Assembly (NCBI GenBank): GCA_021777675.1
Contig: JAJYDG010000002.1
Coordinates: 1-55,345, forward strand
DNA: 55,345 nucleotides
Source: a bacterium
GTDB lineage: Bacteria > Patescibacteriota > Minisyncoccia > Moranbacterales > UBA2206
Reading direction: 5' to 3'
The stretch's first letter is position 1, and each line of letters opens with the position of its first letter. The notes beneath the pieces are model-generated. The model saw nothing but the letters and a program-made list of their open reading frames with translations. It made no database searches and was not told the origin of the DNA. The translations under genes were made by a program, and so were the position numbers. Shown here piece after piece: positions 20,226 through 47,844 of this stretch.

Positions 20226-22130
20226 TTATTCCGTTAGCATTTTTAGAATCTTATCCATTTCAATTGTTGCTCCGCCAATAACGCGATCGCCTCCTCCATA
20301 ATAAATATATAATTTCGCTCCCATTCTAACTGCTCCGCATGGGAACACCACGTTAGGAACAATTCCCTCTTTTTCATAAGCCATTTCCGGCTCTAAGATA
20401 GGATATTTTGTCCTTGCAATAACTTTTTCCGGATTATGCAATTCCAAAAGCGCCGCACCAATCCGATAGCTACTATTTTCTTCTGATACTCCGTGATAAA
20501 TCATTAACCAACCGACTTTTGTTTTCATTACAGTATTTAGACCTATTTTTTTATTGTCCCACATCCCTTTGCGCGGAAACATTATTGGATTTTGTTCCAA
20601 AAGTCTTCCTTCTTCAAAATTCAAATTATCAAAAAAATTAATATCAATAGATGGTTGAATGCGATGAAAAAAAACATACTTTCCCTTAATTTTTTCCGGC
20701 AAAACACAAGCATCTTTATCATCGATTCCCGGAGGAGAAATTAATTTTGGATTCGCCCAATTCCAATTTTTTCTAACTAAATCTCTTACTTTGATTGATG
20801 TCAAGGCCACACGTGGAGCGTTTTTAGCATCAACCGCCGTATAACACATAAAAATATCTTCCCCGATTTTAGTCATGCGCGGATCTTCACAACCGGAATT
20901 GCCTGGTTGCAATTTCATTTCAAATTTTTCTCGCGGAGCATAAACCGGCTCATCAGCTTTTCCGTCAATATTTTTTCCATCCTTAGTCCAAGCATAACCA
21001 ATGACAGAAGTATCATCTTTTGACATTGCCCGATAAAAAATATGCGTCAAGCCTTTTTCTCTGATAGCTGTCGGATTAAAAACCGCTTTGGCTTCCCAAG
21101 CATTTTCACTGATCGGCTCTAAAATAGGATTATTCTCAAACCGCTTGCAACTCAAATGCCCTTTTTTTTCTTCTAATATTTCTTTAATCAGAGCTTCTAA
21201 ATCGCAATCAGCAACACAACAAGTTGTATCTGCCGCTCCATAATAAATAACCAGTTTTTTATTTTTAATTAATGCTCCGGAAGGAAAAATAATATTTGGC
21301 ACTTTTCCATATAACTCATATTCCTCCTCGGGAACCATTAAAGGCAAATCGGTTCTGCCTAATATTTTTTGCGGATTTTTCAAATCCAAAAGTGCCGCTT
21401 CTATTCCAAATATTTTTTGCGTTCCCAAATAATTGCGTATATATGAATAAATTAAAAGCCAGCCTTTTTTGGTTTTAAGCGGAGGAGCACCAAGCTCAAC
21501 TTGATCATTGCTATTTCGTTGTAAAGGAATAGCATGTTCGTCTAAGGTTGAATACCAATTCTTCCAATAGCTTTCCGACCATAAATCTTCCTCGCAATCA
21601 AAATCAGCTATGGCAATTTTTGCTGGAGGAATATCTGTATTTGCTGTAAGCACAGCATAAATTCTTCCGTTTATTTTTTCCGGAAAAAGAGCCATTGCTT
21701 TGGCATTAAAAGGTGTTATACGATGTTTTTTTTCTATTTTTTTTAAATCCTTGGTTATTGCCAACCCAACATTGATACATTTGGCTGAAAAAGGAAAATC
21801 AGAAAGTGCCGTATAAAAAATATAATATTTATTTTCCAATTTTGTAATCCGTGGATCCTCGCAACCAAACTGCTCCCATGAAAATTCCGGAAAAATAAAT
21901 TGGTGATGCTCACCGAAATGTATTCCATCTTTGCTTGTCGCTTGCCCAATAGAAGAAACTTCCATCACTACACCATTATGCAAAATAGGCGAAGATTGAG
22001 CGCGATAAAAAATATGCACTTTATCTTTGCTTTTTATTGGACAACCATTAAAAGCGCCCTGCGCTTCCCAAGAATTACGACTTTCTCCAACTAAAATAGG
22101 ATTTTCCCTATCCCGATAAACTGTAACCAT
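20226..22130 (-). CDS. Protein with two tandem GH130-like domains (glycoside hydrolase/phosphorylase family 130, former DUF377)
   Basis: Two repeats of NPIL...WE...FN...FYRA...DG...GCEDPR(I/M)TK...YTA...IYYGGAD. Confidence 0.7.
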   Translation of the reverse strand: MVTVYRDRENPILVGESRNSWEAQGAFNGCPIKSKDKVHIFYRAQSSPILHNGVVMEVSSIGQATSKDGIHFGEHHQFIFPEFSWEQFGCEDPRITKLENKYYIFYTALSDFPFSAKCINVGLAITKDLKKIEKKHRITPFNAKAMALFPEKINGRIYAVLTANTDIPPAKIAIADFDCEEDLWSESYWKNWYSTLDEHAIPLQRNSNDQVELGAPPLKTKKGWLLIYSYIRNYLGTQKIFGIEAALLDLKNPQKILGRTDLPLMVPEEEYELYGKVPNIIFPSGALIKNKKLVIYYGAADTTCCVADCDLEALIKEILEEKKGHLSCKRFENNPILEPISENAWEAKAVFNPTAIREKGLTHIFYRAMSKDDTSVIGYAWTKDGKNIDGKADEPVYAPREKFEMKLQPGNSGCEDPRMTKIGEDIFMCYTAVDAKNAPRVALTSIKVRDLVRKNWNWANPKLISPPGIDDKDACVLPEKIKGKYVFFHRIQPSIDINFFDNLNFEEGRLLEQNPIMFPRKGMWDNKKIGLNTVMKTKVGWLMIYHGVSEENSSYRIGAALLELHNPEKVIARTKYPILEPEMAYEKEGIVPNVVFPCGAVRMGAKLYIYYGGGDRVIGGATIEMDKILKMLTE

Positions 22131-22150
22131 AAAAAAAATATTAAAAAAAA

Positions 22151-23992
22151 TTAGGCAATCGCTATTTTTCTAAATGAAGTGACTGCAGATGAATTAATTA
22201 ACGCTGCCAAAAAATCTTTTATTGGAGTTGTTGCAACACAAGTAAATCTATCGGCGCCACCATAATACACAAAAAGCTTTTCATCCTTAACCACGGAACC
22301 GCAAACATATACCACACCAGCTTTTGATCCTTCGTTTTCGTATTTTTCAATTGGTTCCAAAATCGGCTCGAAAGAACGATATAGAACTTCTTCCGGATTT
22401 TTATAATCCAATAACATTGCGCCGACTTTGTATTTATTCGGATCACGCTTATCCATAGCATGATAAAGCACTAACCAGCCATGTTCTGTTTTAATTGGTG
22501 GCGAACCGACTCCGCGCAAAATATTATCCCAACGAGTTTCATCCGATTTATTATTGTGGTAACTTTCTATTACTATTTTTTCCGAATCAAGAGAATTGAA
22601 ATAATCAATAGAGATTTTCGGAGAAATGCTGTGCAAAATAGCAAATTTTCCATTTATTTTTTCCGGAAAAAGCACCCAATTCTTTTGAATTTCACCAGGC
22701 CTGGAAATTAGTTTGGGAATTTTCCAATTCCAATTCTTGCTTAAAAAATCTTCAATCGATATGGAAGTCAACGCCACTCCTGGCGGATTATAACCATTAA
22801 AAGCAACATATGTCATGTAAATCATATCGCCAATAACAGAAATTCGCGGATCTTCACATCCGCTCCAGCTACCTCCGGACATATATGAATAAGCAAAATT
22901 TTTAGTACTATTTTTTCCGGCATACTCAAATATTTGCGACGGAAGATAAACTGGCGTATCTAACCTCTCGTCAATATTAATTCCATCACTACTTGACGCA
23001 TAGCCCAAAACAGAAATACCGGATTCTCCGAGTGCACGATAAAGCAAATGCACTTTTCCATTCAGATTTACCGCTGCCGGATTAAATGTTTCTCTGGATT
23101 CCCATTTATTTTCACTGCGTGGAATAAGTACAGGATTATTTTTCGCTTTTTTTAATTTTAATTTTGAAATATTGGCTATTTCTCGATGAACATCTTTTTT
23201 ATGGACCGGAAATCGCGCCAAAGAAATAGGCATAACATGCAACTCATCGGCATAATCCCAATATGATAGAATTTCATTATTCTTAAAAACCGACCCAATA
23301 AACCGCACTGCACGCCCATTCCATTCTTTTGGCTGTTGCCAAAGAGAAACGCTTGAACGCCATAAAATTCTTTGATAATCATTTTTATCAAGGAGCACCG
23401 CTCCCACTCCCCATTGTTTAATTTTGTTTTGCGCCGAATATACAAGAATAATTCCCTCCTTTGTCCAAAAAGCATTGTCTGCTGAAAGACGATATCCGTC
23501 AAAATAACCATCGCGCGGACGCAAAAGCGAGCCCCGTTTAACATGCCATTTTTTCAAATCAGAAGAAGTGGCAATTTGAACAGAATTTTTTCCAAAAAAC
23601 ATTAGATATTTCTCAGCCAAATGATCAAAAATAATTACAGCTCCATAATCTTTAATTCCCTCAACCGGACCAATTTTTTCCCAAATAATGCCGTCAGCGG
23701 ATACTGCAACCATTAGCTGTTTTTCGTTTTCATTTACTTTTTGTTTATAAAAAAGTACGTATTGCTCATTTAATTTTGAGATCTTGAAATCATCATCGAT
23801 TTTTAACTTATTTTTTATACCTAAGAATTTTTTAAAAAATATTTTTTGGGGCAATCGCTCAAAATGCAATCCATCATCTCCAATTAAGATTTGCACGGGT
23901 TGATTATCGCCGAATTTTTCTTTGCAAAAAAGAAAAACTTTTTTTCCTATCCGGGAAACAGCCAAGCCAAAAAAATTTTTATCGCTAGCCAT
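22151..23992 (-). CDS. Paralogous two-domain GH130-like protein (divergent N-terminal domain, canonical C-terminal domain)
   Basis: The C-terminal half has NPVLIP...WESRETFNPAA...LYRA...GCEDPRISV...VYYGGAD. The N-terminal half is propeller-like but lacks GCEDPR. ATG 23992 is preferred over the ORF-track TTG 24049. Confidence 0.65.
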   Translation of the reverse strand: MASDKNFFGLAVSRIGKKVFLFCKEKFGDNQPVQILIGDDGLHFERLPQKIFFKKFLGIKNKLKIDDDFKISKLNEQYVLFYKQKVNENEKQLMVAVSADGIIWEKIGPVEGIKDYGAVIIFDHLAEKYLMFFGKNSVQIATSSDLKKWHVKRGSLLRPRDGYFDGYRLSADNAFWTKEGIILVYSAQNKIKQWGVGAVLLDKNDYQRILWRSSVSLWQQPKEWNGRAVRFIGSVFKNNEILSYWDYADELHVMPISLARFPVHKKDVHREIANISKLKLKKAKNNPVLIPRSENKWESRETFNPAAVNLNGKVHLLYRALGESGISVLGYASSSDGINIDERLDTPVYLPSQIFEYAGKNSTKNFAYSYMSGGSWSGCEDPRISVIGDMIYMTYVAFNGYNPPGVALTSISIEDFLSKNWNWKIPKLISRPGEIQKNWVLFPEKINGKFAILHSISPKISIDYFNSLDSEKIVIESYHNNKSDETRWDNILRGVGSPPIKTEHGWLVLYHAMDKRDPNKYKVGAMLLDYKNPEEVLYRSFEPILEPIEKYENEGSKAGVVYVCGSVVKDEKLFVYYGGADRFTCVATTPIKDFLAALINSSAVTSFRKIAIA

Positions 23993-24062
23993 ATTTTTAT
24001 AATTTTTTATATTTGCATAATAACACAAAAAACGCTCAACCTCAAGCAACTGGTTTTACTTT

Positions 24063-25994
24063 TTATTTTCTAATATCTTCATGTGCGCTAGAGAAAGATT
24101 TTTTAAAGAGAACAACCCAAAAATAATTTATCGCATATAGCCACCCGGTAGCGAATAATCCTTTTTCGGATAAACGCCTTCCTGAAGAATATATCGGCAA
24201 TTTAAGGGTAAACTTTACTTGGCCAACCGCCCTTATTCTTTTGGCAATATCGGCATCTTCGCCATAGAATTCAAATTGCGGATTGAAGCCACCAATTTTT
24301 TCCATTGCCGTCCGTCTAACAATGAAATTACCCCCCTGCAAAACCGACCCATTTTTAAAAATATATTGGTTGATTAGATGAAAAAAATGTCCAACCACAT
24401 ACCATAGATAAACAAAAAACCTGGCTGTTTTTGACAGATCATAATAAATGAACGGCCCACTCAAGGCAACCAATTTTGAATTGGCGGAAAATTCCGCAAA
24501 TACTTTATTTAACCAACCATCGCAAAGTCTTGTATCAGCATCCAGATTAGCAACTAAATCTCCAGAGCTAGCCAGATATCCTGCGCATCGTGCCACTACC
24601 AGACCTTTTTTCGGCTCATCCACAATAATTGCATGGGGAAAAGATTTGGCGACTTCGCGCGTTCGATCAGTGCTGGCATTATTCACCACAATCACTTCGG
24701 CATTGATTTTCTCCTTTTCCAATTCTTGAAAAATGGATCTTAAACAGTCGCCAAGATAATCCTCTTCGTTATAAGCCGGAATAACAAAACTTAGTTTTAA
24801 TTTGGAAAATTTTTTTCGAAGCTCTTTTTGAAAAAGATTTTCCCAATGATTAGCAACTATTTCAACGGAAAAATTTTTCGCATTTTCAATGCCACCCTGT
24901 CCCAATTCAAATCTTTTTTTATCATCTTCAAAAAGTTCAATTATTCTTTGAGCTAAAGCGTTAGTATCTCCCGGTTCAATAATATAGCCATTGCGCTCAT
25001 TGATATATTCCGGCAAGCCCCAAGCATTAGCTCCAATCACCGGAATACCCGCCGCCATAGCTTGCAACATGCTGATACATTGCGTTTCAGCCGTACTCAT
25101 CACTGTAAAAATATCAGCGGCAGAATAGAGCTCACTAAAAACATCCATTTCAACATAACCGAAAAAAATAACATTTTTTTCAAGTCCCAATTCCTTGGTT
25201 AATTTTTCCAATTCTTCCTTGGCACTCCCATGTCCTGTTACGACAAAAGTAATATCTGTAAATTTTTCTTTAACCAAAGCTACAGCACGAATAATCACAT
25301 CAATATTTTTTTCTTGCGCCAAACGACCGGCATAAAAAATCACTTTGTTTGAAAAACCAAATTTTTTCTTTAACTGTTTTTTAGTATCTGCAAAAACAGG
25401 CTTGAAACCAAAAAGATTAATCGGATTAGAAACAACCTGACTATTTTTTTTCAAACCGTTTTTTTTCATTTCATCTAAAATCAATTGAGAAGGAGCGCTA
25501 ACCCAAAGACATTTATTATAATACCAACTAACATAGCTGAGCGCGAATTGATTAATCCATTCAGCACGAATTGGGGCATACTTTAAAAACTCGGTAATCG
25601 GCGTATGATTCGTTCCAATAAGCGGAACTTTCAATATGCGAGAAAGCATCAACGCTTCAAGACCGGCGCTAAAAAAATCTTGCGTATAAATAATATCCGG
25701 ATTAAATTTTTTAATATGCCAAAAACTGGATAATACTGGAAAAACAAACCGACCTTGTTTGGTCGGTGCCATCGGATAAGACATGGAGACTAAACGAAAA
25801 ATTTCAATATTATCGTGTAGTTTTATTTCTTTCGGATCAAGTTTTGCCGTAATAAAATTATTTTTTGTGTAATACGGTACATAAAAATTTATCTTATGCC
25901 CTCTTTTTGCCAATTCATTAGCAAGCGAAATAATCGAATCAGAAATTCCGCTTATTTCCGGATAAAAATTGTCTGAAAAAATGGCAATTCGCAT
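24063..25994 (-). CDS. Bifunctional glycosyltransferase (N-terminal GT4, C-terminal GT2)
   Basis: N-terminus MRIAIFSDNFYPEISG with an E-x7-E-type GT4 C-lobe. C-terminal half has LSFVIPAYNEE...NNASTD...DAD, a GT2 signature. Confidence 0.8.
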   Translation of the reverse strand: MRIAIFSDNFYPEISGISDSIISLANELAKRGHKINFYVPYYTKNNFITAKLDPKEIKLHDNIEIFRLVSMSYPMAPTKQGRFVFPVLSSFWHIKKFNPDIIYTQDFFSAGLEALMLSRILKVPLIGTNHTPITEFLKYAPIRAEWINQFALSYVSWYYNKCLWVSAPSQLILDEMKKNGLKKNSQVVSNPINLFGFKPVFADTKKQLKKKFGFSNKVIFYAGRLAQEKNIDVIIRAVALVKEKFTDITFVVTGHGSAKEELEKLTKELGLEKNVIFFGYVEMDVFSELYSAADIFTVMSTAETQCISMLQAMAAGIPVIGANAWGLPEYINERNGYIIEPGDTNALAQRIIELFEDDKKRFELGQGGIENAKNFSVEIVANHWENLFQKELRKKFSKLKLSFVIPAYNEEDYLGDCLRSIFQELEKEKINAEVIVVNNASTDRTREVAKSFPHAIIVDEPKKGLVVARCAGYLASSGDLVANLDADTRLCDGWLNKVFAEFSANSKLVALSGPFIYYDLSKTARFFVYLWYVVGHFFHLINQYIFKNGSVLQGGNFIVRRTAMEKIGGFNPQFEFYGEDADIAKRIRAVGQVKFTLKLPIYSSGRRLSEKGLFATGWLYAINYFWVVLFKKSFSSAHEDIRK

Positions 25995-37033: not shown

Positions 37034-37440
37034 GGGGATGTTTGGTTTCGACAGATTGTACATTTAGAATATGCAAGCCGAGGTTGATCATAACTCGTAA
37101 AACATGATCAAAATTATAAGTGCAAACTTATTTACAAAAGCAAAAACTGCAATCGCTAACGCTTTTACAGTCAACTTTGCTACCGCTCTTGCCTAATTAC
37201 CCTAAAAAGGTTTAGCATCAGCCATTAAATCCATTTTGCGCCTGACAAATGGATTTGGTGCCAAATTATCAGCGCTAGTTTCAAATGTTTTTCTTGAGCA
37301 TTTAAAACGAAAAACTTTCAAGATTAGATTAAAAAGATTTTGTTTATCTTTCACTTTTTAATCGAATTAAAGATAAACTAAGCTTGTAGTATATTTTGGG
37401 TGAATAATTTTGGACGCGAGTTCAACTCTCGCCATCTCCA
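37034..37440 (+). ncRNA. ssrA: tmRNA (SsrA), one-piece, tag ANLFTKAKTAIANAFTVNFATALA
   Basis: 5' GGGGAUGUUUGGUUUCGAC..GCAAGCCGAGG...CUCGUAAAA parallels canonical tmRNA. The tag ORF is GCA 37122 to TAA 37196 and ends in ALA. The 3' end is GGACGCGAGUUCAACUCUCGCCAUCUCCA, a T-arm plus acceptor strand pairing with the 5' end and including G3:U70. Confidence 0.85.
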
Positions 37441-37451
37441 CAGCCGATATA

Positions 37452-39636: not shown

Positions 39637-40305
39637 TTAAAATTTTAAATATTTGTTCCAATGCATATATAATTCCCTGGTTGTTGCCAAATCGCGCGCG
39701 CAATATCGTGCAATTTCCAGATATCTTCCCGTTTGGTATAATTCAGAAACCATTGATCCGTCAACGCCATCATCCTTGGAACTTTTTATGCCAAAAAATT
39801 TAGCGTAAAAATCCAAATTAAATTTTCTCGTTGCTCCATAGAATGTCAGTTGATCAAGCAAATCGCAATGTTTCTGAAATTCATAGCGGTAACCTAACAA
39901 ATTTTTTGTCGGACACACGGAATGTTTGGCACTGCGCAAAAGAAGAAATGGGACATCAAAAGCTCGCCCGTTAAAAGTAATCACAGTATCATATTTTTCT
40001 ATAATTTCCCAAAATTTTCTTAAAATATTTTCTTCCACTCCGCTTTGATATTTTATTCCATTTTCCTTAAATTCCACCTGTTCGCTATTATTATTTTGAA
40101 AAAGCAACATTCCATTTTGCGTATCGGGATTAAGCATACCGATCGCTACGATTTCTCCCGTTAAAGGATACAACCCCAACCTTTTTTTTATTTCTGCTTT
40201 TTCTTCTTCGGTCGTCGCATATTTTAATAAATATTCTTGTGTCTTTTTTTCAAAAGATTCAAAATCAAAACCGATTGTTTCGATATCAATAACGATTTTC
40301 GCCAT
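39637..40305 (-). CDS. RNase H-fold 3'-5' exonuclease related to the PolB exonuclease domain (DEDDy)
   Basis: ExoI IVIDIETIG, ExoII FNGRAFDVPFL, ExoIII YCARD (Yx3D). 222 aa. Confidence 0.65.
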   Translation of the reverse strand: MAKIVIDIETIGFDFESFEKKTQEYLLKYATTEEEKAEIKKRLGLYPLTGEIVAIGMLNPDTQNGMLLFQNNNSEQVEFKENGIKYQSGVEENILRKFWEIIEKYDTVITFNGRAFDVPFLLLRSAKHSVCPTKNLLGYRYEFQKHCDLLDQLTFYGATRKFNLDFYAKFFGIKSSKDDGVDGSMVSELYQTGRYLEIARYCARDLATTRELYMHWNKYLKF

Positions 40306-40331
40306 AACAGTAAAATGAAATTTTATGCTTT

Positions 40332-40340
40332 AATTATAGC
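40332..40340 (-). promoter_or_regulatory. Extended -10 element (TGCTATAAT) upstream of the exonuclease gene
   Basis: The minus strand reads GTGCTATAATTA about 27 nt upstream of ATG 40305. Confidence 0.3.
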
Positions 40341-40744
40341 ACAAAAGCGAAATGCCAAATAGTGAAAAACAAAATATTTAAAAGATGTCTGTTTTTACAG
40401 TTTTAGCTTGATAATACAGCTTTAATCCAATAGCTGTCCTTTCTCTTTCCGGAAGCGTTTAAATATCTTTAGTTGTCGCTCGCATTAGTTTCATATTTTT
40501 AATGACTCGAAAACAAATCGCTGTGTTTGATTATTTTCAATAATTACATAAAAAATATTTATTTTTTAGAAAATCAATCATTTTATTAACTGCATCTTCG
40601 ATAGCTTTGTCTTCTTCTTTGCACTGACTGCTGTCTTTCAAATAAGCTCTTACCAAACAATTATCTGACTTATCATAAATGCTGAATCTATTTTTATAAG
40701 CCAAGCATATCGGCTCTCTTTAGTTTCTTTTTCCATAAAAATTT

Positions 40745-42238
40745 TTAAACTGATTTTAATACCCTCCAAATTTCAACCATAGCCAATGTATCGAGATGGC
40801 AATAATCTTTAAGTGCCTGTATTTTCATATCCTTATCTTCATCAGAATATTCTCCTGATACAATACGATTCCAAGTATCTGACGCGGCACCACCTTCTTG
40901 AATATGCATATTTTTATATGAAAGATGGGGAACAAGAGCCGGCAAAACATATTTTATTGAAGCACTTCCCTTAAACTCCGGATGATCATACATTGTGGTT
41001 TTTCCAAAAAATGGAACCATCAAGTCGATGACTCGATTGTTAACATTCTGCATAAAATCCTTGTATTTTGATAATCGTTCTCCAAGTTGTTTATTGATAC
41101 CTTGCTCAAATTTCCGATTCCAAACAATGACACTGCCTTTTTCGGGAAGATGCCTTTTTAATGCTTGGACAAAAGATTCATCTGGGCAATCTTTGTCTGT
41201 ATAAATAAAATCATAATGAACAGATTCGCTATCCGGAGATTCAATCACATGCAGTGAAAATTGAAACGGAATTTGCTGATATGGACTGTATCTATTGTAT
41301 TTTGGTATTGCGGATGGATATGTTTCATAATCAAGAAAAGCCAGCGGATATTTCATTGCTCCTAAAAATTCTGAAATGCCATCCTTATCAATATATTCTT
41401 TGCCGGATTTGGCTGTTTCCACTTGCCTTTTTTGATTGTCTGAAAGCGGAAAATCATCCGGCACATCATGAATATTAAAAATATGACTATCAACCAACTC
41501 GGCTAATTTTGTCTTATGAATTCTTGCAATTGCATGAACAGAATATTCCGGAAGATCCGAGTTCGAATACCACGCTGTCGTGCAATGCGAGTTTTTTCCT
41601 TTTAAAATACAATCGCAATGCCCTCTCGGTTCAGTTTCGCTGGATAACAATTCATAGGCACCCTCCATCTTTTGCTTTATGTCATCCAGCTTCGCATTCA
41701 CTTGACTAGTCAAATCTTCTATAAAAAATAATTCTTGCAAATTAATATCGCCAAGACGAACATATTTTTTATTCAGCCTGATCAGATTGAAAGTTCCCAT
41801 CTCAATGCCTATGGCATCTAAAACATTCTTTTGAAAAGCCATATCTATCAAATAATCATCGGTTTTTCTTCCCCCATTTTCTTCCGAAGCTGTCGATGAT
41901 TTCACTTCATACAAATCATAGACATCCGTGTCAGAGTTAAAAACAAAAATATCAGAGACTGCGAGATATTTTTCAGTTGCAAAAACAGGCTGATAAATTA
42001 CAGGTGTCTTTTCTGCCATAAGCTTCTTTGTGAGTTCCGTATCATCACGAGATTCCACCAGCACGCCACCCGGAAAAAGACCGCGCGCAAGCTCGTCAAT
42101 TTGATTGCCGGTATCAATAATATTCAGTTCAAAAGAAGAAAGCGCTTTTTTCTTATACACCTCCGGCTTATGAATTTTTAGCCAAGCATTCTTTGCACAA
42201 TCGAGGCATATCAGAAAGTTTGTTTTTGATAATTTCAT
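40745..42238 (-). CDS. DUF2779-like protein: N-terminal Cas4/RecB-like PD-(D/E)xK nuclease with a Cys cluster, plus a C-terminal DEDDy 3'-5' exonuclease
   Basis: N-terminus MKLSKTNFLICLDCAKNAWL is typical of DUF2779. SDIFVF...DLYEVKS gives D...ExK. Cysteines lie at CLDC and HCDCILKGKNSHC. The C-terminal part has FLDYET (ExoI), WNRKFE (ExoII-like) and YCHLD (Yx3D). Confidence 0.65.
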   Translation of the reverse strand: MKLSKTNFLICLDCAKNAWLKIHKPEVYKKKALSSFELNIIDTGNQIDELARGLFPGGVLVESRDDTELTKKLMAEKTPVIYQPVFATEKYLAVSDIFVFNSDTDVYDLYEVKSSTASEENGGRKTDDYLIDMAFQKNVLDAIGIEMGTFNLIRLNKKYVRLGDINLQELFFIEDLTSQVNAKLDDIKQKMEGAYELLSSETEPRGHCDCILKGKNSHCTTAWYSNSDLPEYSVHAIARIHKTKLAELVDSHIFNIHDVPDDFPLSDNQKRQVETAKSGKEYIDKDGISEFLGAMKYPLAFLDYETYPSAIPKYNRYSPYQQIPFQFSLHVIESPDSESVHYDFIYTDKDCPDESFVQALKRHLPEKGSVIVWNRKFEQGINKQLGERLSKYKDFMQNVNNRVIDLMVPFFGKTTMYDHPEFKGSASIKYVLPALVPHLSYKNMHIQEGGAASDTWNRIVSGEYSDEDKDMKIQALKDYCHLDTLAMVEIWRVLKSV

Positions 42239-42275
42239 ATGATTTTATTTAAAAAATCCGTCCCTTGCGTAGCTT

Positions 42276-44456
42276 TTATTTTATCATTTGATTGTAGTGC
42301 GCTTCATATCCAGAATCTTCAAATATTTTTTTAAATGCTTCTTTGAAAATTTGAGGGTTAATTTCTTTCGAATCAGAAATGTTTATTGGATCAGAATGAG
42401 ATTCCTTATTTATATATCTTATGAAAAAATTATTTTTCTCATCTTTTTCTAATTCTTTTGTAAGTTCATTAAAATCATTTTTTTCTATAAAACCAAAAAA
42501 CCTTTCGAGAATATTTCTCATTGCATTTGCTAATATTACCTCGGTTGCCCTACCTTCGTCATAATCTTTTAATATTTGCCAGTATGATTGATATTCATTT
42601 TGAATATCTTTGCGATTCATTTCTGATAATTGAGAAAAATCTGACCTGCAAAGTCTAAAAAGTTTTGCGTTGGTATCCTTCTGCTTATGAAGTAGCTCAT
42701 GAAAAAAATATAGATTGTGAGTTAAAACAAACACTTGCTTATAATCATCATTAAAAAAGTTTTTTCTTATTAGCTGTGCTACATTAAAAACATACATATG
42801 CGACAAGCTAGAAATAGGATCATCGATAACGACTATTTTTTCAGTTACCACCTCGTCATTTTTTTCTTTGCCTTTGCATAACTCCAAAAAATACAAGAAG
42901 CTAATTACTGTTTTTTCTCCTTCGCTCAATGTTTCGAATTTAGCCACATCTTCATTTGGTCTTTTAAGTTTATATGAATCTTTACCAGCTGGCACAATAG
43001 AAAATCCGTCTAAGCCAAAAAATATTAATTCACTATTTATGGCATCAATTGCATCTTGAATATTTACCATTTCTTTTTGTGCATCTTGTATTATTTTTTT
43101 CTGTTCATCGATTTCCGTCTTTAATCCTGAAATTTTAGTTTCAATATCCAATTTTTCTTTTTCAAGCTTGGCATTCTGTGTTGCGTGATTTTCTATCACT
43201 TGGTCGTAATACCACCTCATAATTTCCCAAAACTCTTTAATGATTTGGCTCTTTGTTTTTTGCTTATTCTTTATTTTTTCATTGTGAGTTTTTATTTCTT
43301 CAACAATTGTATCTAAAAAATCATTTAAAGCATTTTGCTCTAAAATAGTTGATTCTAAATCAATGATTATGTTTGGACTTTTAATTTTATTGGAAATCTT
43401 TGACCAATTACCGCTTACCTTATCAATAAAATTTTTAAATACGAGCTTAAATGCTGTTTCTTTGTTTTTTATAAAATCTATTTTTAAAAGTTCCGCCTCT
43501 AAATTTTTTATAACTTGATATTCTTTCCAATATTCTTTATCAAAATTTTCTAATGAATTAATTTTATTTTGATAAGTTTCATCAAAGTAATTTTGAATTT
43601 CTTGGTATAATTCCTTAGTAATAGTTTTTTGCTGGCAAAAAGGGCAAACTTCGTTTTCTCCTTCTGGTTCATTAACAAGTTCTTTTCCTTTTTTTACCCA
43701 ATCTGAAATGTTTAACTTGCCTATAAGTTCCGCGACTTGTGAATTTTCGTTACCAATAATAACTTCTTTGAAAATTTCCTGATTTTCTATTTTCCAAAAA
43801 TCAAAACTAACTTTTTTAACCAGATTTTCATCATAAGTTTTAGCATTTTCTCCTTGAGTTGCTTCTGCTTCTTTTTTCAAATCTTCTATTGATTTTTCTG
43901 ATTTATTCTCTGGTTTTTGTAATTTAGAAACATAATCAAATAAGGATTTTTTACTTCCCATCTTTCCATCTAAGCAAAATTCTAAAATTCTATCACCACC
44001 ATAATAGTCATTTTTAATTTTCCAAGTTTTTTTCTCAGAGTCAGATTGCAAGCTAGCAATATCTGCTTGTTTTTTTTCTAAATCAAATTGAAATCCTGTC
44101 TTTAATTCATCATTTTTAATTCGAGCCTCTATTTGCTTTATTTCTTCAGTGGCTTTATCTATCTTTTCTTTCGCCTCTTTGTTTTCTGACTTCAAACTAA
44201 AAATACCTTTTTGAGTATCTTGATAAAAATTATCATCAATAAATTTTTGATTGTAAACTAATACTTTTTCGCTATTTAATCCTTCAATTGAACAATCAGA
44301 GAAGCACTCATTATTTTTATCTTGAAGATACTTTGAAAGAGTTGTTTTTCCTGCTCCATTCAGTCCATAAATAAGATTGATTTTTTTATCAGTCTCTAGA
44401 ATAGCAGGTACTGCACCATAACTTGCAGTATTTTTTATAGAAATCTTAGTAATCAT
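42276..44456 (-). CDS. RloC/PrrC-family (AAA_13) ABC ATPase with a coiled-coil CxxC hook and a C-terminal anticodon-nuclease-like motif
   Basis: Walker A GLNGAGKTT (aa 31-39), CPFC (aa 271-274) inside a roughly 470-aa K/E-rich insertion, signature LSEGEK (aa ~510), Walker B IVVIDDP (aa ~541), and a C-terminal MRNILERFF...NKESH (R-x3-E...H). Confidence 0.65.
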   Translation of the reverse strand: MITKISIKNTASYGAVPAILETDKKINLIYGLNGAGKTTLSKYLQDKNNECFSDCSIEGLNSEKVLVYNQKFIDDNFYQDTQKGIFSLKSENKEAKEKIDKATEEIKQIEARIKNDELKTGFQFDLEKKQADIASLQSDSEKKTWKIKNDYYGGDRILEFCLDGKMGSKKSLFDYVSKLQKPENKSEKSIEDLKKEAEATQGENAKTYDENLVKKVSFDFWKIENQEIFKEVIIGNENSQVAELIGKLNISDWVKKGKELVNEPEGENEVCPFCQQKTITKELYQEIQNYFDETYQNKINSLENFDKEYWKEYQVIKNLEAELLKIDFIKNKETAFKLVFKNFIDKVSGNWSKISNKIKSPNIIIDLESTILEQNALNDFLDTIVEEIKTHNEKIKNKQKTKSQIIKEFWEIMRWYYDQVIENHATQNAKLEKEKLDIETKISGLKTEIDEQKKIIQDAQKEMVNIQDAIDAINSELIFFGLDGFSIVPAGKDSYKLKRPNEDVAKFETLSEGEKTVISFLYFLELCKGKEKNDEVVTEKIVVIDDPISSLSHMYVFNVAQLIRKNFFNDDYKQVFVLTHNLYFFHELLHKQKDTNAKLFRLCRSDFSQLSEMNRKDIQNEYQSYWQILKDYDEGRATEVILANAMRNILERFFGFIEKNDFNELTKELEKDEKNNFFIRYINKESHSDPINISDSKEINPQIFKEAFKKIFEDSGYEAHYNQMIK

Positions 44457-44494
44457 AGTTTAAAATATCGAATTTACTCGATATTTTTTTAATT

Positions 44495-45589
44495 TTATTT
44501 CCCAGATTTTCTTCTATTACATTCTTTGCATAACATTTGGCAATTTTCTGAAATTGTTTTTCCACCTTCGTGCCAAGGAGTTATATGATCCGCTTCCATT
44601 TCCTCTAGTGCAAAATGCTCTCTACATTTTGAACAAACACCCTTCTGCTCTTCATAGACCTTTTGTTTTATGGCGTCAGAAAACGCACGAATCGAAAGAT
44701 GCTTTTCATCGTGAGTCAAAATGTATGGATAAATCCCGCTCTTCTTTGTTACATCATCATCAAGTATCAATTTTGCTATTTCTTTTTCAATTTTTTCCGT
44801 ATTGCATTGCTCATCTTTGTATTTATTATAGAGAGTGCCCCAATCAACACCTTTCATGAACTTCCTTTTTTGAGTGAAGGTGGTTTCTACCCAAGTAATA
44901 ACATCTTGAAAATATCGCCACAAAGCAGCGGCATTTTGATCATGCTGATGCTTTGACATATATTTTTCAATTTCACCGCCACTCACCCAATTAATAACTG
45001 TTTCTAGATAGTCTTGACGAATAGGAGTGCCATTCAAATAATCACTTCCTATACTGTAAGCAACGCACCCGCTCTTACTAAAATATTTTTTTGCGTCAGT
45101 GACCCAGGTGCCGGAATAAACAGCATTTCTTAATTCTTGGTCTGTCAATTTTTCTCCCGCAATATTTATCGTTTTGAACCAATCTAGTTTTTCCCTATCT
45201 GTCCCACTGCACTGATAGACGGTAAGCTTATAATTTAAAATCTGATCTTTTTGATCATTTGTAAGATTATGAAAAGCTAATTTATTCCCTGAAAAATCAA
45301 CAGAAAAATCCCCATTAAAGTACTGACAAATTGAAATTGTGCGCTGTTGTCCATCAATAATTTCGAAATTTCCATCCTCGCGAACAGCCCAATACATCAC
45401 ATTAAGTGGAAACTCTTTTGTGATAGTATCAATAACAGCATCTCTTTGTTTGTCATTGTAAATGAATTCTCTTTGATATGGTGGACGAATATCAAGTTTG
45501 CCACCATACCCCACAACACCAGCTTCAGCATTGTCTTCAAAATTCTCTACCAATTCACGAACTGAAATTTCTTTTAGTTGTATTTCCAT
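44495..45589 (-). CDS. DUF262 (ParB/GmrSD-N-like) - HNH endonuclease fusion
   Basis: PYQREF and IIDGQQRT (DGQQR) motifs in the N-terminal part. The C-terminal part is CSKC...ADHITPWHEGGKT...NCQMLCKECNRRK, an HNH domain with a zinc ribbon. Confidence 0.75.
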   Translation of the reverse strand: MEIQLKEISVRELVENFEDNAEAGVVGYGGKLDIRPPYQREFIYNDKQRDAVIDTITKEFPLNVMYWAVREDGNFEIIDGQQRTISICQYFNGDFSVDFSGNKLAFHNLTNDQKDQILNYKLTVYQCSGTDREKLDWFKTINIAGEKLTDQELRNAVYSGTWVTDAKKYFSKSGCVAYSIGSDYLNGTPIRQDYLETVINWVSGGEIEKYMSKHQHDQNAAALWRYFQDVITWVETTFTQKRKFMKGVDWGTLYNKYKDEQCNTEKIEKEIAKLILDDDVTKKSGIYPYILTHDEKHLSIRAFSDAIKQKVYEEQKGVCSKCREHFALEEMEADHITPWHEGGKTISENCQMLCKECNRRKSGK

Positions 45590-45593
45590 AATA

Positions 45594-46676
45594 TTATTTT
45601 ATTACTTTCTTATTTTTAATTAAAACTCTAAAATACTTTGATTTTCCATTTATTTCAGTCATATGGAGATGTTTTGTCACAGCATTTTCATTCAGGCCAG
45701 CAACATCCAATATTGTATATCTATTTAGTCCATCAATAATCTCAAATTGTTCAGGGTTGTATTTATGCAAGAAGGTTATTGGAACACCTATGATACCGCT
45801 ATAATCTATCGGGATGTCCTTTGTTTTGTCTACATTTATCGCATCGAAATTATCATACTTAAAATATTCACTTTCATTATCAGAATACTTTTTATACAAA
45901 ATCAATTCTTCATGTCTTTTGTTATGGTCTAAGTTCGTAAACCACACTACACCTGCTACAAAAGCATATTTTTTACCGTTCTCAATTTTATGATATGTTT
46001 TATAATAGTCTGGGATTTGAAACCAACGATTTGAACCATTCATGCTAACACCAAGCCACAACTCGTTTTCTTTAACTAATTTGAAAATTTCTTTATATGT
46101 TATTGCATTTTGATTACCAATGACTAAAAATTTTTTGTCATATTCCATCAATTGTGCAACATATTCACGAAATAAAGAAAATGGTGGATTGGTAACAATA
46201 ATATCCGCCTCTTTTAAAATCTCTTTGGATTCTTCGCTTCTGAAATCACCACCACCCTTGAGTGGAGTGGCAACATTTTTATCATGTCTTAAAATCCATT
46301 CAACATCGACCATATTAACAGCACCATCAGAATTGAGATCCCTTACTTCATTAATTTCAATTTTATGTGGCTCTTTTCTTCTTGCTTTTTTTAATCCTTC
46401 TACCTCAAACAATGGAAGTTGTCCCCCGACAACAGGCGAGCCGGCATAACTTGTAGCAATAAGCTTTTTAAGGCCGAGTGCGTTGAAATTAGAAGCAAAA
46501 TATTTAAAAAAATTACTTTCAAAGGGATCATCCGCATTGCAATAAACGACCTTGTCTTTAAATTGATCCTTGTAGTATTTTAACTCTTTTTCTATATCAG
46601 AAAGCTGAGTATAAAACTCATCATTTTTCGCCTTGTTTGCATTGCGCAAATTTTTATTTGATGCTTTCTTTTCCAT
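45594..46676 (-). CDS. N6-adenine DNA methyltransferase, EcoRI-methylase-like
   Basis: N-terminal NDEFYTQLSDIEKELKYY...KVVYCNADDP...FFKYF resembles the M.EcoRI family. Catalytic motif IV is IVTNPPFS (NPPF, nt 46179..46190). Confidence 0.7.
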   Translation of the reverse strand: MEKKASNKNLRNANKAKNDEFYTQLSDIEKELKYYKDQFKDKVVYCNADDPFESNFFKYFASNFNALGLKKLIATSYAGSPVVGGQLPLFEVEGLKKARRKEPHKIEINEVRDLNSDGAVNMVDVEWILRHDKNVATPLKGGGDFRSEESKEILKEADIIVTNPPFSLFREYVAQLMEYDKKFLVIGNQNAITYKEIFKLVKENELWLGVSMNGSNRWFQIPDYYKTYHKIENGKKYAFVAGVVWFTNLDHNKRHEELILYKKYSDNESEYFKYDNFDAINVDKTKDIPIDYSGIIGVPITFLHKYNPEQFEIIDGLNRYTILDVAGLNENAVTKHLHMTEINGKSKYFRVLIKNKKVIK

Positions 46677-46679
46677 AAA

Positions 46680-47594
46680 CTATTTGTTCAAATCATAACT
46701 CTGCTTGATTAAAAGAAAAACTGATTCAAGGTCTTTTTCATCTTTTAATTTCACCTCATAATCTCCATTACCCCAGTGACCCTTCTTGGGTTTCGTAAAA
46801 TCTGTCGCTATATCCAATATATCAATTAATTTCCCACTTTTTACATTGAGCGTAATTCTGATTTCATCTTTATAAATAATCAGGTCGGCAAAGTTAGTTG
46901 TTGTTTTGTAAGCTATGTAAAATTTCTTTGGCTCCTCTCTTATTTCCTCATCGAGAGAAATAATTTCTTCGCGCAATTTATAAAAAAGAGCTTTTGTTTT
47001 TTGATTAGCTTTTTTTAGGTGATAATCTATAGAATAATTTTTTTGCAAAATTTCTGTTTTTTCTTTGTTATTATTTTTTGATTTCCTGATAATTCCAGAA
47101 GTGGAAATTTTTATTTTCTGATAGTTTTCCGGTTCAAGATAAAGGATATCGTTTTCATAAATCCTATATCTCAAAAGTTCAATGTTGATTGGCAAAATAT
47201 CTGCCGTGTCTATATCAAACTTGTTATAACTTTCCGCAACACAAATGACTCGAGGAGAATCCCAGTCGATATCAACTTCGATATTTTTTTCTTTACATAA
47301 AATTTCAAAATCTGCTTTGTGATCCAAGAGCCAGCGCAAATATGAAAGACCTTGATTGATGACGCTATCGTTTTGGCTTTTCTTATACTCAATAATGCAG
47401 GGCGAGCCATTCTTGTCTATGCCCAAAGTATCAATTCTACCCACGAAACTAATCGAATATTCATGAGCCAAAAAATCAATATTCAAAATTTCTTCCAGAT
47501 TATTTTCAAATAATTTCTGCAAGTCTTTTTCCAGGCCTAGAGCTTTCGTCACTAATTTTGATACCTTTGGATTTTGAATCTTGAATAATGCCAT
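46680..47594 (-). CDS. NucS/DUF91-like PD-(D/E)xK nuclease domain fused to a DUF5655-like C-terminal domain
   Basis: GRIDTLGIDKNGSPCIIEYKKS...INQGLSYLRWL gives D-x13-E-x-K plus a Q...Y pattern. The C-terminal half (KFYIAYKTTTNFADL...HWGNGDYEVKL) resembles DUF5655. Confidence 0.6.
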   Translation of the reverse strand: MALFKIQNPKVSKLVTKALGLEKDLQKLFENNLEEILNIDFLAHEYSISFVGRIDTLGIDKNGSPCIIEYKKSQNDSVINQGLSYLRWLLDHKADFEILCKEKNIEVDIDWDSPRVICVAESYNKFDIDTADILPINIELLRYRIYENDILYLEPENYQKIKISTSGIIRKSKNNNKEKTEILQKNYSIDYHLKKANQKTKALFYKLREEIISLDEEIREEPKKFYIAYKTTTNFADLIIYKDEIRITLNVKSGKLIDILDIATDFTKPKKGHWGNGDYEVKLKDEKDLESVFLLIKQSYDLNK

Positions 47595-47737
47595 ATATTT
47601 ATTTTAAAAAAGGAGGGTTTTTGCTGTTTTTATGATACCACTAAGCCAGTAATTACTCAACACTTTTCCAAAATAAGCATCACAAGGGCAATTTCTGAAC
47701 AAATCCAGCCCTGCGACTTGACATCCCATAACACAAA

Positions 47738-47765
47738 AGAATTACGCAATCAATTGCGTAATTCT
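47738..47765 (-). terminator. Hairpin terminator downstream of tRNA-Trp
   Basis: agaattacgcaat ca attgcgtaattct, a 13-nt inverted repeat, with TTTT following on the minus strand. Confidence 0.55.
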
Positions 47766-47773
47766 TTTATCTG

Positions 47774-47844
47774 CACGGGGTGTAGGAATCGAACCTACGT
47801 CAGAAGTTTTGGAGACTCCCGTACTGCCACTGTACGAACCCCGC
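47774..47844 (-). tRNA. tRNA-Trp (anticodon CCA)
   Basis: Hand-folded cloverleaf: acceptor GCGGGGU/ACCCCGU, D-stem GUAC/GUAC, anticodon loop CUCCAAA, T-arm GUAGG-UUCGAUU-CCUAC, discriminator G. CCA is not encoded. Confidence 0.9.

Follow-up and report, generated by a model that had tools for sequence, protein, structure and literature searches.

A likely composite defence island of separable restriction, anticodon-nuclease and accessory nuclease modules beside tRNA-Trp in a Moranbacterales genome

Bacteria of the candidate phyla radiation (CPR; Patescibacteria) have tiny genomes and few described defence systems, and a five-gene block in a member of the Moranbacterales raises the question of whether such a genome carries one integrated defence machine or an assembly of separable parts. 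The window analysed here is a whole 55,345-nt stretch of DNA (contig JAJYDG010000002.1, assembly GCA_021777675.1). Its list of open reading frames (ORFs) contains exactly five long ORFs on the minus strand between 40745 and 47594, with intergenic gaps of 3, 4, 38 and 37 nt from gene 1 to gene 5, in full agreement with the initial annotation. The five family assignments made there were borne out by profile searches and motifs, that of a NucS-like nuclease by a fold match. We consider the block likely to be a composite, probably co-transcribed defence island of four separable modules at a tRNA-Trp-proximal CPR hot spot. Below, P1, M and R stand for genes 1, 2 and 3, and L-numbers for fetched comparison loci, in which ORFs were called by a simple longest-ORF heuristic. 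The features of the block are as follows.

46680..47594 (-): gene 1 (P1), 304 aa; NucS/Shedu-like PD-(D/E)xK nuclease plus DUF5655; PADLOC PDC-S18
45594..46676 (-): gene 2 (M), 360 aa; EcoRI-family N6-adenine DNA methyltransferase
44495..45589 (-): gene 3 (R), 364 aa; DUF262 plus HNH nuclease
44457..44494 (-): R-RloC spacer, 38 nt; imperfect palindrome ATATCGA-N6-TCGATAT, then TTTTAAA
42276..44456 (-): gene 4 (RloC), 726 aa; ABC ATPase plus predicted anticodon nuclease; PADLOC PDC-S06
40745..42238 (-): gene 5 (DUF2779), 497 aa; Cas4-like nuclease plus DEDDy exonuclease

Genes 2 and 3 are predicted to be an autonomous type II-like restriction-modification (R-M) system. Gene 2 matched Pfam EcoRI_methylase (4.4e-142) and the PADLOC MTase_II model PDLC03297 (2.9e-129), with NPPF at residue 163. 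Gene 3, its presumed restriction partner, combines GmrSD_N (DUF262; DGQQR at residue 79) with a classical HNH domain (PF01844, 1.4e-12) and matched the PADLOC REase_II model PDLC03418 over its full length (1.2e-133). As expected of a type II system, the M and R genes are adjacent and co-oriented, 4 nt apart, and recur as an autonomous pair: full-length R was found on 45 plasmids from many phyla, an EcoRI-family methylase is annotated beside R in 9 of the 15 plasmid records listed, and in both plasmid contexts examined (Sulfitobacter and Aeromonas) M-R is a stand-alone two-gene unit. Gene 3 departs from GmrSD-type (type IV) enzymes by its HNH domain in place of DUF1524 and by the methylase in its operon. 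We found no characterised homolog, and an incomplete literature search returned no paper characterising a DUF262-HNH/EcoRI-family methylase pair; a sequence search of gene 3 against the PDB gave an HNH motif match only.

Gene 4 is, by its sequence, an RloC-type protein with a predicted anticodon-nuclease function. Published sequence criteria for RloC are a length of 658-897 aa (about twice that of PrrC), ABC motifs, a CX2C hook in an insert that splits the ATPase, and a C-terminal triad R-X3-E-X36-52-H, often with Ser before the His (PMC2610378). Gene 4 has the length, the ABC motifs (GLNGAGKT at 31, LSEGE at 510, IVVIDD at 541 and an invariant H580), a zinc hook (CPFC at 271-274, midway in a ~470-residue insert between Walker A and the signature motif) and the triad, one residue short in its spacing (R647-x3-E651-x35-S686-H687), which upholds the first description of an RloC/PrrC-like ATPase with a CxxC hook and an R-x3-E...H tail. 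The ATPase motifs, CPFC and the C-terminal triad are invariant in 18 homologs, and the JGI label for the homologs is 'wobble nucleotide-excising tRNase'. The protein matched Pfam AAA_13 (9e-115, residues 17-713) and PADLOC PDC-S06 (2.7e-232), and the PrrC model matched residues 499-719 (6.4e-17); its profile had no match among PDB sequences. Its 726 aa, the hook insert and its type II-like M and R neighbours do not fit PrrC.

Comparison with a relative indicates that the site beside tRNA-Trp is variable. Locus L007 is syntenic with the window (S2, EF-Ts, PSP1, TPR, tRNA-Thr/Tyr/Thr, tRNA-Trp), and at the same tRNA-Trp site it carries HsdR-HsdM/S-RloC (RloC 85 % identical), followed directly by an intact GNAT acetyltransferase gene; it keeps RloC and has no genes 1, 2 or 3 and no DUF2779 gene. 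The tRNA-Trp site is thus a hot spot at which R-M partners and flanking nucleases change around a constant RloC, and the initial view of the block as foreign and island-like gains support from the different gene set in L007. The closest RloC copies (83-88 %) reside in type I or type III-like systems without genes 1, 2, 3 and 5, and DNA homology of the window RloC to L004, L005 and L007 ends at the borders of the RloC gene. A tree places the window RloC within the type I-linked copies, with more basal positions for the other M-R-linked ones. Two patches of the RloC nuclease domain (~590-640 and ~655-680) are 96-99 % identical within the window clade and 46-50 % identical in the L011, L013 and L087 copies; they may be a specificity or anti-inhibitor determinant. 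A swap of the C-terminal domain, considered from sliding identity, was rejected, as the alignment contains variable patches with all catalytic motifs kept.

A profile scan with one genome per species yielded 80 RloC loci. Among 118 same-strand neighbours of these relatives, type I R-M domains were commonest (Methylase_S 15, N6_Mtase 13, HSDR_N 7), type III, IIG and RhuM/Fic domains also occurred, and several loci have the classic order hsdM-hsdS-[ACNase]-hsdR (ACNase, anticodon nuclease). R-M genes lie no more than two genes away in 16 of the 45 RloC loci at 41 % identity or above and in 0 of the 33 below 41 %; these counts of defence-like neighbours are lower bounds, with loci counted irrespective of shared ancestry. 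Linkage to R-M in this clade is therefore at least 36 %, compared with 8 of 73 (11 %) reported for RloC generally (PMC2610378). These frequencies bear on an explanation in which the block is a set of co-located selfish or mobile genes with R-M and RloC uncoupled, the former an addiction module and the latter an independent DNA-damage toxin. Such independence would agree with the literature, which places most rloC genes outside R-M loci and has them respond to DNA breaks on their own, and with the position of the window RloC closer to type I-linked copies than to those of other M-R cassettes, which argues against partner-specific co-evolution. R-M genes are, however, the dominant neighbours of this clade, and RloC stays in place while its partner is exchanged between the window and L007, a pattern more easily explained if linkage to some R-M system is selected. 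We therefore regard uncoupled genes as a rather unlikely explanation.

The arrangement of the block recurs in other genomes. A DUF2779 homolog led to L087/L097, a Parcubacteria population with the full order P1-M-R-RloC-DUF2779 at 89/58/60/74/86 % identity and with flanks that differ from those of the window and include the defence candidates SLFN_AlbA_2, DUF2726 and PDC-M68B. The other cases came from a tblastn search of the 80 RloC loci with the window's other proteins. L013 has M-R-RloC-DUF2779; over 6 kb its DNA aligns collinearly with the window in a single match (74 %), and its intergenic gaps are 4, 38 and 39 nt. L011 has the same four genes behind a 325-aa gene, L015 has M-R-RloC with R split, and L017 has a fragment of R at the locus edge. 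P1 is absent from L013, L011 and L015; the 325-aa gene upstream of M in L011 was considered as a diverged gene 1 and rejected (no similarity and no PADLOC or Pfam match). In L013, L087 and L011 the sequence of the 38-nt spacer between R and RloC is well conserved; with its palindrome, the spacer could be an operator or attenuator. Judged from this recurrence of gene order and spacing, the arrangement is more than chance.

The same data can be read as a single integrated five-component machine of a new type, for example with RloC and DUF2779 as a Rad50- and Mre11-like pair and gene 1 as sensor or controller. The full order in L087/L097, the near-identical spacing and conserved R-RloC spacer in L013 and L011, and a gene order that outlasted divergence to ~74 % DNA identity all fit such a machine. 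Its parts, however, mostly occur apart: RloC and DUF2779 are paired in only 2 of the 80 RloC loci, M-R is found in only 2 of 80 metagenomic DUF2779 loci (L091 and L097), M-R is autonomous on plasmids, RloC copies of 83-88 % identity and the syntenic L007 copy do without genes 1, 2, 3 and 5, and P1 is missing from three of the related cassettes. An integrated machine is accordingly a distinctly improbable explanation. The predicted co-occurrence of the five families thus stood for the full order in L087/L097 and for four genes in L013 and L011 and failed as a general rule, and the proposal of one undescribed integrated system gave way to parts that recombine freely (M-R on plasmids, RloC with type I, type III-like and type II systems, DUF5655 with other R-M genes).

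Gene 1 behaves as one of these movable parts. It matched Pfam DUF5655 (1.2e-13) and, over its full length, PADLOC PDC-S18 (PDLC04946, 1.3e-94, residues 2-301), while NucS_C remained sub-threshold (17.7 bits against a cut-off of 24). The nuclease residues D55 and E69-x-K71 are invariant, and an AlphaFold2 model of moderate quality (pLDDT 69) has EndoMS/NucS and Shedu SduA as the nearest matches to its nuclease fold; this fold match supports the NucS-like call despite the sub-threshold profile score. Other restriction genes are directly preceded by P1 homologs of 72-91 % identity. In L173 (8001-14089) the order is HTH-P1-M-R-DUF4297-HerA (HTH, helix-turn-helix) inside a serine-recombinase element, L175 and L177 (8001-11768) combine P1 with an unassigned gene of 431/439 aa and two N6_N4 methylases, and L171 has MazE-P1-DUF3800-DpnI-like. 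A solo copy stands amid metabolic genes in L180 (Zixibacteria). On viral contigs of IMG/VR, only distant relatives of gene 1 and of RloC were found (34-38 % identity). Elsewhere in CPR, serine-recombinase elements carry the DUF5655 gene behind a small HTH gene and at the head of varied cargo; so placed, it resembles a conserved 'leader' of mobile restriction cassettes.

Gene 5 matched Pfam DUF2779 (PF11074, 3.9e-37) at residues 301-427. The fusion of DUF2779 and DEDDy parts described initially was right as to both domains and wrong as to their labels: the DUF2779 model covers the DEDDy exonuclease half, and the Cas4-like PD-(D/E)xK half is N-terminal. In the latter, D96, E111-x-K113 and four cysteines (C14/C208/C210/C219) are all invariant, as are D303-x-E305, E378 and Y479-x3-D483 of the C-terminal DEDDy half. 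The protein had no match among PDB sequences; with its AlphaFold2 model (pLDDT 88.8), Foldseek placed Cas4 first (4r5q, probability 1.0) and also retrieved MGME1. The two-domain reading of DUF2779 is already in print (passages of PMC3985635 and PMC13621843).

The genomic contexts of DUF2779 point in two directions. The family is very widely distributed across CPR and strongly conserved there (more than 6000 matches at 70-90 % identity), a sister clade at 52 % identity has a fixed pheS/pheT/gyrB synteny, some copies of the closer clade (55-90 %) adjoin rpoC, dnaG or rpoD, PADLOC has no DUF2779 model, and a DUF2779 gene, MMSYN1_0389, is quasi-essential in the minimal Mycoplasma JCVI-syn3.0 (a passage of PMC13621843). 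These facts, together with the solo P1 copy in L180, would suit an explanation in which only M-R, with or without RloC, is a defence system and DUF2779, perhaps also gene 1, is a housekeeping repair or recombination nuclease bordering the hot spot, its adjacency being positional. In the window, however, the DUF2779 gene lies inside the variable segment; L007 has no such gene between RloC and GNAT, and in L013 and L087 DUF2779 accompanies M-R-RloC amid unrelated flanks. Moreover, at least 32 of 62 loci of the closer clade adjoin large helicase/nuclease or restriction-type genes; a partner that is directly upstream is often separated by -43 to +15 nt. Among these partners are MTES_1575 SF1 helicase-nucleases, type III R-M with DUF87/RmuC, ResIII-TnsA, PIF1/SNF2 helicases, type ISP and Mrr, and in more than 10 distinct contexts DUF2779 is the tightly spaced or overlapping 3' gene behind such varied restriction or helicase-nuclease genes. 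We therefore think it unlikely that the role of gene 5 is one of housekeeping. A related cassette in L084/L091 (AMFJ01004250; 1137-7494 in L084) reads M, an Old/AriA/GajA-like ATPase (490 aa), DUF262-HNH, an unassigned 342-aa gene and DUF2779 (90 %), with a different ABC-type ATPase in the place of RloC.

A wider interpretation of these contexts is that DUF2779 and PDC-S18/DUF5655 are general portable accessory nucleases of CPR restriction-type systems. DUF2779, co-transcribed last behind type II, type III, type ISP and helicase-nuclease systems, would then be an end-processing or fragment-degrading partner, either a stand-in for RecBCD/AddAB or an Mre11-like partner of the Rad50-like RloC, and the window would be one instance of an unrecognised 'restriction + clean-up nuclease' design. 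In this generality the idea is tentative and, in our view, doubtful. The earlier suggestion of DUF2779 as a new accessory finds some support in its tight linkage to many restriction-type genes; its linkage to the cassette itself is rare (2/80).

Returning to the composite island, the M-R core would be the first line of defence: the EcoRI-family methylase would label the cell's own DNA at N6-adenine, and DNA without this label would be cut by the DUF262-HNH protein. The second module, RloC, would join a Rad50-like ABC ATPase to a HEPN-type anticodon nuclease that is silent while restriction works; as a latent backstop, it would cleave tRNA anticodons and cause abortive infection if restriction is disabled or if DNA breaks or damage signal an escaping phage. 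We infer this guard role from the analogy with PrrC and RloC, and the layered logic of R-M and anticodon nuclease proposed at the outset is to this extent supported. Because the type of R-M partner varies, and because partners are exchanged around a resident RloC, a generic signal of DNA state (DNA breaks or restriction loss) is a likelier trigger than partner-specific contact. Genes 1 and 5, the third and fourth modules, would be portable nucleases that join varied restriction systems in CPR rather than obligate subunits. Most plausibly they act on DNA ends or fragments, and the necessity of both is doubtful, since the other parts often occur without them.

Several observations weigh against this interpretation. 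Order, spacing and the R-RloC spacer are kept in four genomes, which could mean a tighter integration than that of modules, and the pheS/pheT/gyrB synteny and quasi-essentiality of DUF2779 suggest that it may not be a defence gene. The DUF262 plus His-Me architecture of R, an uncharacterised protein, resembles the modification-dependent GmrSD, so that 'type II' is an assignment drawn from PADLOC/REBASE-derived models and from the linked methylase. The E-to-H spacing of gene 4 is 35 residues, one under the published 36-52. Promoter-like sites are no commoner in the sequence than in shuffled sequence. Finally, GAATTC, CAATTG and AATT are not depleted in the window, where no avoidance of a palindrome points to a recognition site. 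The observed/expected ratio of AATT is near expectation (0.92), and GAATTC is not among the most depleted 6-mers; ACGT (0.37) and GGCC (0.39) are the strongly under-represented 4-mers, CATG (0.63) less so, a pattern that may reflect pressure exerted by other restriction systems in the genome or community.

The closest known systems account for much of this design. RloC of Geobacillus kaustophilus and Acinetobacter baylyi (Davidov & Kaufmann 2008, PMC2610378) resembles gene 4 in size, CX2C hook, triad and occasional R-M linkage, but its R-M links are of type I or III, whereas gene 4 accompanies a type II-like M.EcoRI-family/DUF262-HNH pair. PrrC-EcoprrI offers the same principle of a latent anticodon nuclease in the operon of a restriction system, as a second line or guard, and a PrrC-like hsdM-hsdS-[ACNase]-hsdR layout is present in more distant relatives of gene 4. 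PrrC is nevertheless shorter (~340-420 aa), lacks a zinc-hook/coiled-coil insert and has a strictly type Ic partner that it contacts physically; the varying partner of the gene 4 clade, unlike that of PrrC, suggests a generic trigger. Gene 3 shares with GmrSD, BrxU and SspE an N-terminal DUF262 (ParB-like, DGQQR) joined to a His-Me finger nuclease, but is much shorter (364 aa), has a classical HNH in place of DUF1524 and shares an operon with its own methylase, an arrangement that favours unmodified DNA as the target of restriction. The domains of gene 5, its PD-(D/E)xK triad and its DEDD residues with Tyr are those described for DUF2779/solo-Cas4-DEDDy proteins in passages of Majorek 2014 (PMC3985635) and, for MMSYN1_0389, of PMC13621843. 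The CPR protein keeps four Fe-S cysteines, compared with two in the Mycoplasma protein of the latter passages, and it is the 3' gene of a restriction cassette, whereas the passages of both papers do not mention linkage to defence islands.

The concept of R-M combined with an ABC-HEPN anticodon nuclease is therefore known: a 'multi-pronged R-M + HEPN/ACNase' strategy has been published (PMC2610378, PMC3710099). Passages of Anantharaman et al. 2013 (PMC3710099) describe PrrC/RloC-type ABC-HEPN genes, accompanied by RhuM or Fic/Doc genes, as 'often found in R-M operon', and the Pfam families of these neighbourhoods are the same as some among the neighbours of the window RloC's relatives; the RloC passages of that paper do not include a pairing with an EcoRI-family methylase/DUF262-HNH, DUF5655 or DUF2779. 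In PADLOC, genes 1 and 4 are already single-gene candidates (PDC-S18, PDC-S06) and genes 2 and 3 already type II R-M (PDLC03297/PDLC03418), which flags the four genes as three items and no composite system. What appears to be new is the link of RloC to a type II-like M-R pair, the swapping of the R-M partner in situ around RloC at a CPR tRNA-Trp hot spot, and the recurrence of DUF5655 and DUF2779 nucleases at the flanks of restriction modules. CPR bacteria would thus carry the PrrC/RloC-style strategy of restriction plus a suicidal tRNA nuclease, here with a type II-like R-M system, and the uncharacterised nuclease families PDC-S18/DUF5655 and DUF2779 are nominated as recurrent companions of restriction systems.

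Features at the borders of the island are as follows.

47773..47844 (-): tRNA-Trp (CCA), Rfam tRNA 59.6 bits; the island's upstream border
47735..47768 (-): perfect 16-bp inverted repeat, then CTTTTG, after tRNA-Trp (repeat search)
47632..47660 (-): candidate sigma-70-like promoter TTGAGT-17-TATCAT with extended TG, upstream of gene 1, by consensus match only
40414..40494 (-): remnant, 27 codons (20/27 identical, in-frame stop), of a GNAT acetyltransferase gene that L007 has intact

The tRNA-Trp gene lies upstream, 178 nt from gene 1, and is preceded in the flank by tRNA-Thr/Tyr/Thr and rpmG. The hairpin at 47735-47768 is probably the terminator of the tRNA/rpmG unit, in which case the five-gene block would need its own promoter. 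No terminator-like site was found in the four intergenic gaps; from this, the tight spacing and the same spacing in L013, L011 and L087, we infer that the five genes are probably co-transcribed, as the initial annotation had supposed. The 439-nt gap below gene 5 (40306-40744) has the length first reported but is not simply non-coding: it holds the dead GNAT remnant, with further short coding-like fragments upstream of it. As the intact GNAT gene directly follows RloC in L007, the variable region has a conserved downstream border at the remnant.

Beyond the gap, the downstream flank comprises a PolB-exo2/RNase_H_2-type exonuclease, a HAD hydrolase, L20/L35/IF3 and tmRNA/SmpB, and the genes around the block serve translation and envelope functions. 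GC content of the block is slightly low (0.27-0.36). The window, a contig of metagenomic origin (ENA ERZ27236874), has its closest relatives in Parcubacteria, Moranbacteria and other CPR metagenome-assembled genomes. A classical tRNA-integrated island has an integrase and a direct repeat of the tRNA 3' end; here, no duplicated tRNA-Trp 3' end (att) or long bounding repeats were found across 38.5-48.4 kb, and the flanking genes scanned yielded no recombinase domain. Related cassettes in other genomes do adjoin serine recombinases. An Rfam scan of 36.5-49 kb, including the 439-nt gap, returned only tmRNA and tRNAs. The exonuclease gene directly after the gap (39637-40305, -, 8.5e-23) stands alone and has the fold class of the DUF2779 C-terminal half; a 46 %-identical homolog ~1.4 kb upstream of M in L091 suggests that it may also be island-associated.

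Two further features of the window lie outside the block. The tmRNA at 37034-37441 (+) has an unusually long predicted tag, ANLFTKAKTAIANAFTVNFATALA, and its 3' end is overlapped by the listed IF3 ORF (TTG start 37410), so the true infC start is probably further downstream. An envelope/glycan cluster unrelated to the defence block occupies 20226-25994 (-); it comprises a GT4-GT2 fusion glycosyltransferase and a tandem pair of GH130 (mannoside phosphorylase-like) paralogs, both of ~630 aa and with long extensions at the N-terminus.

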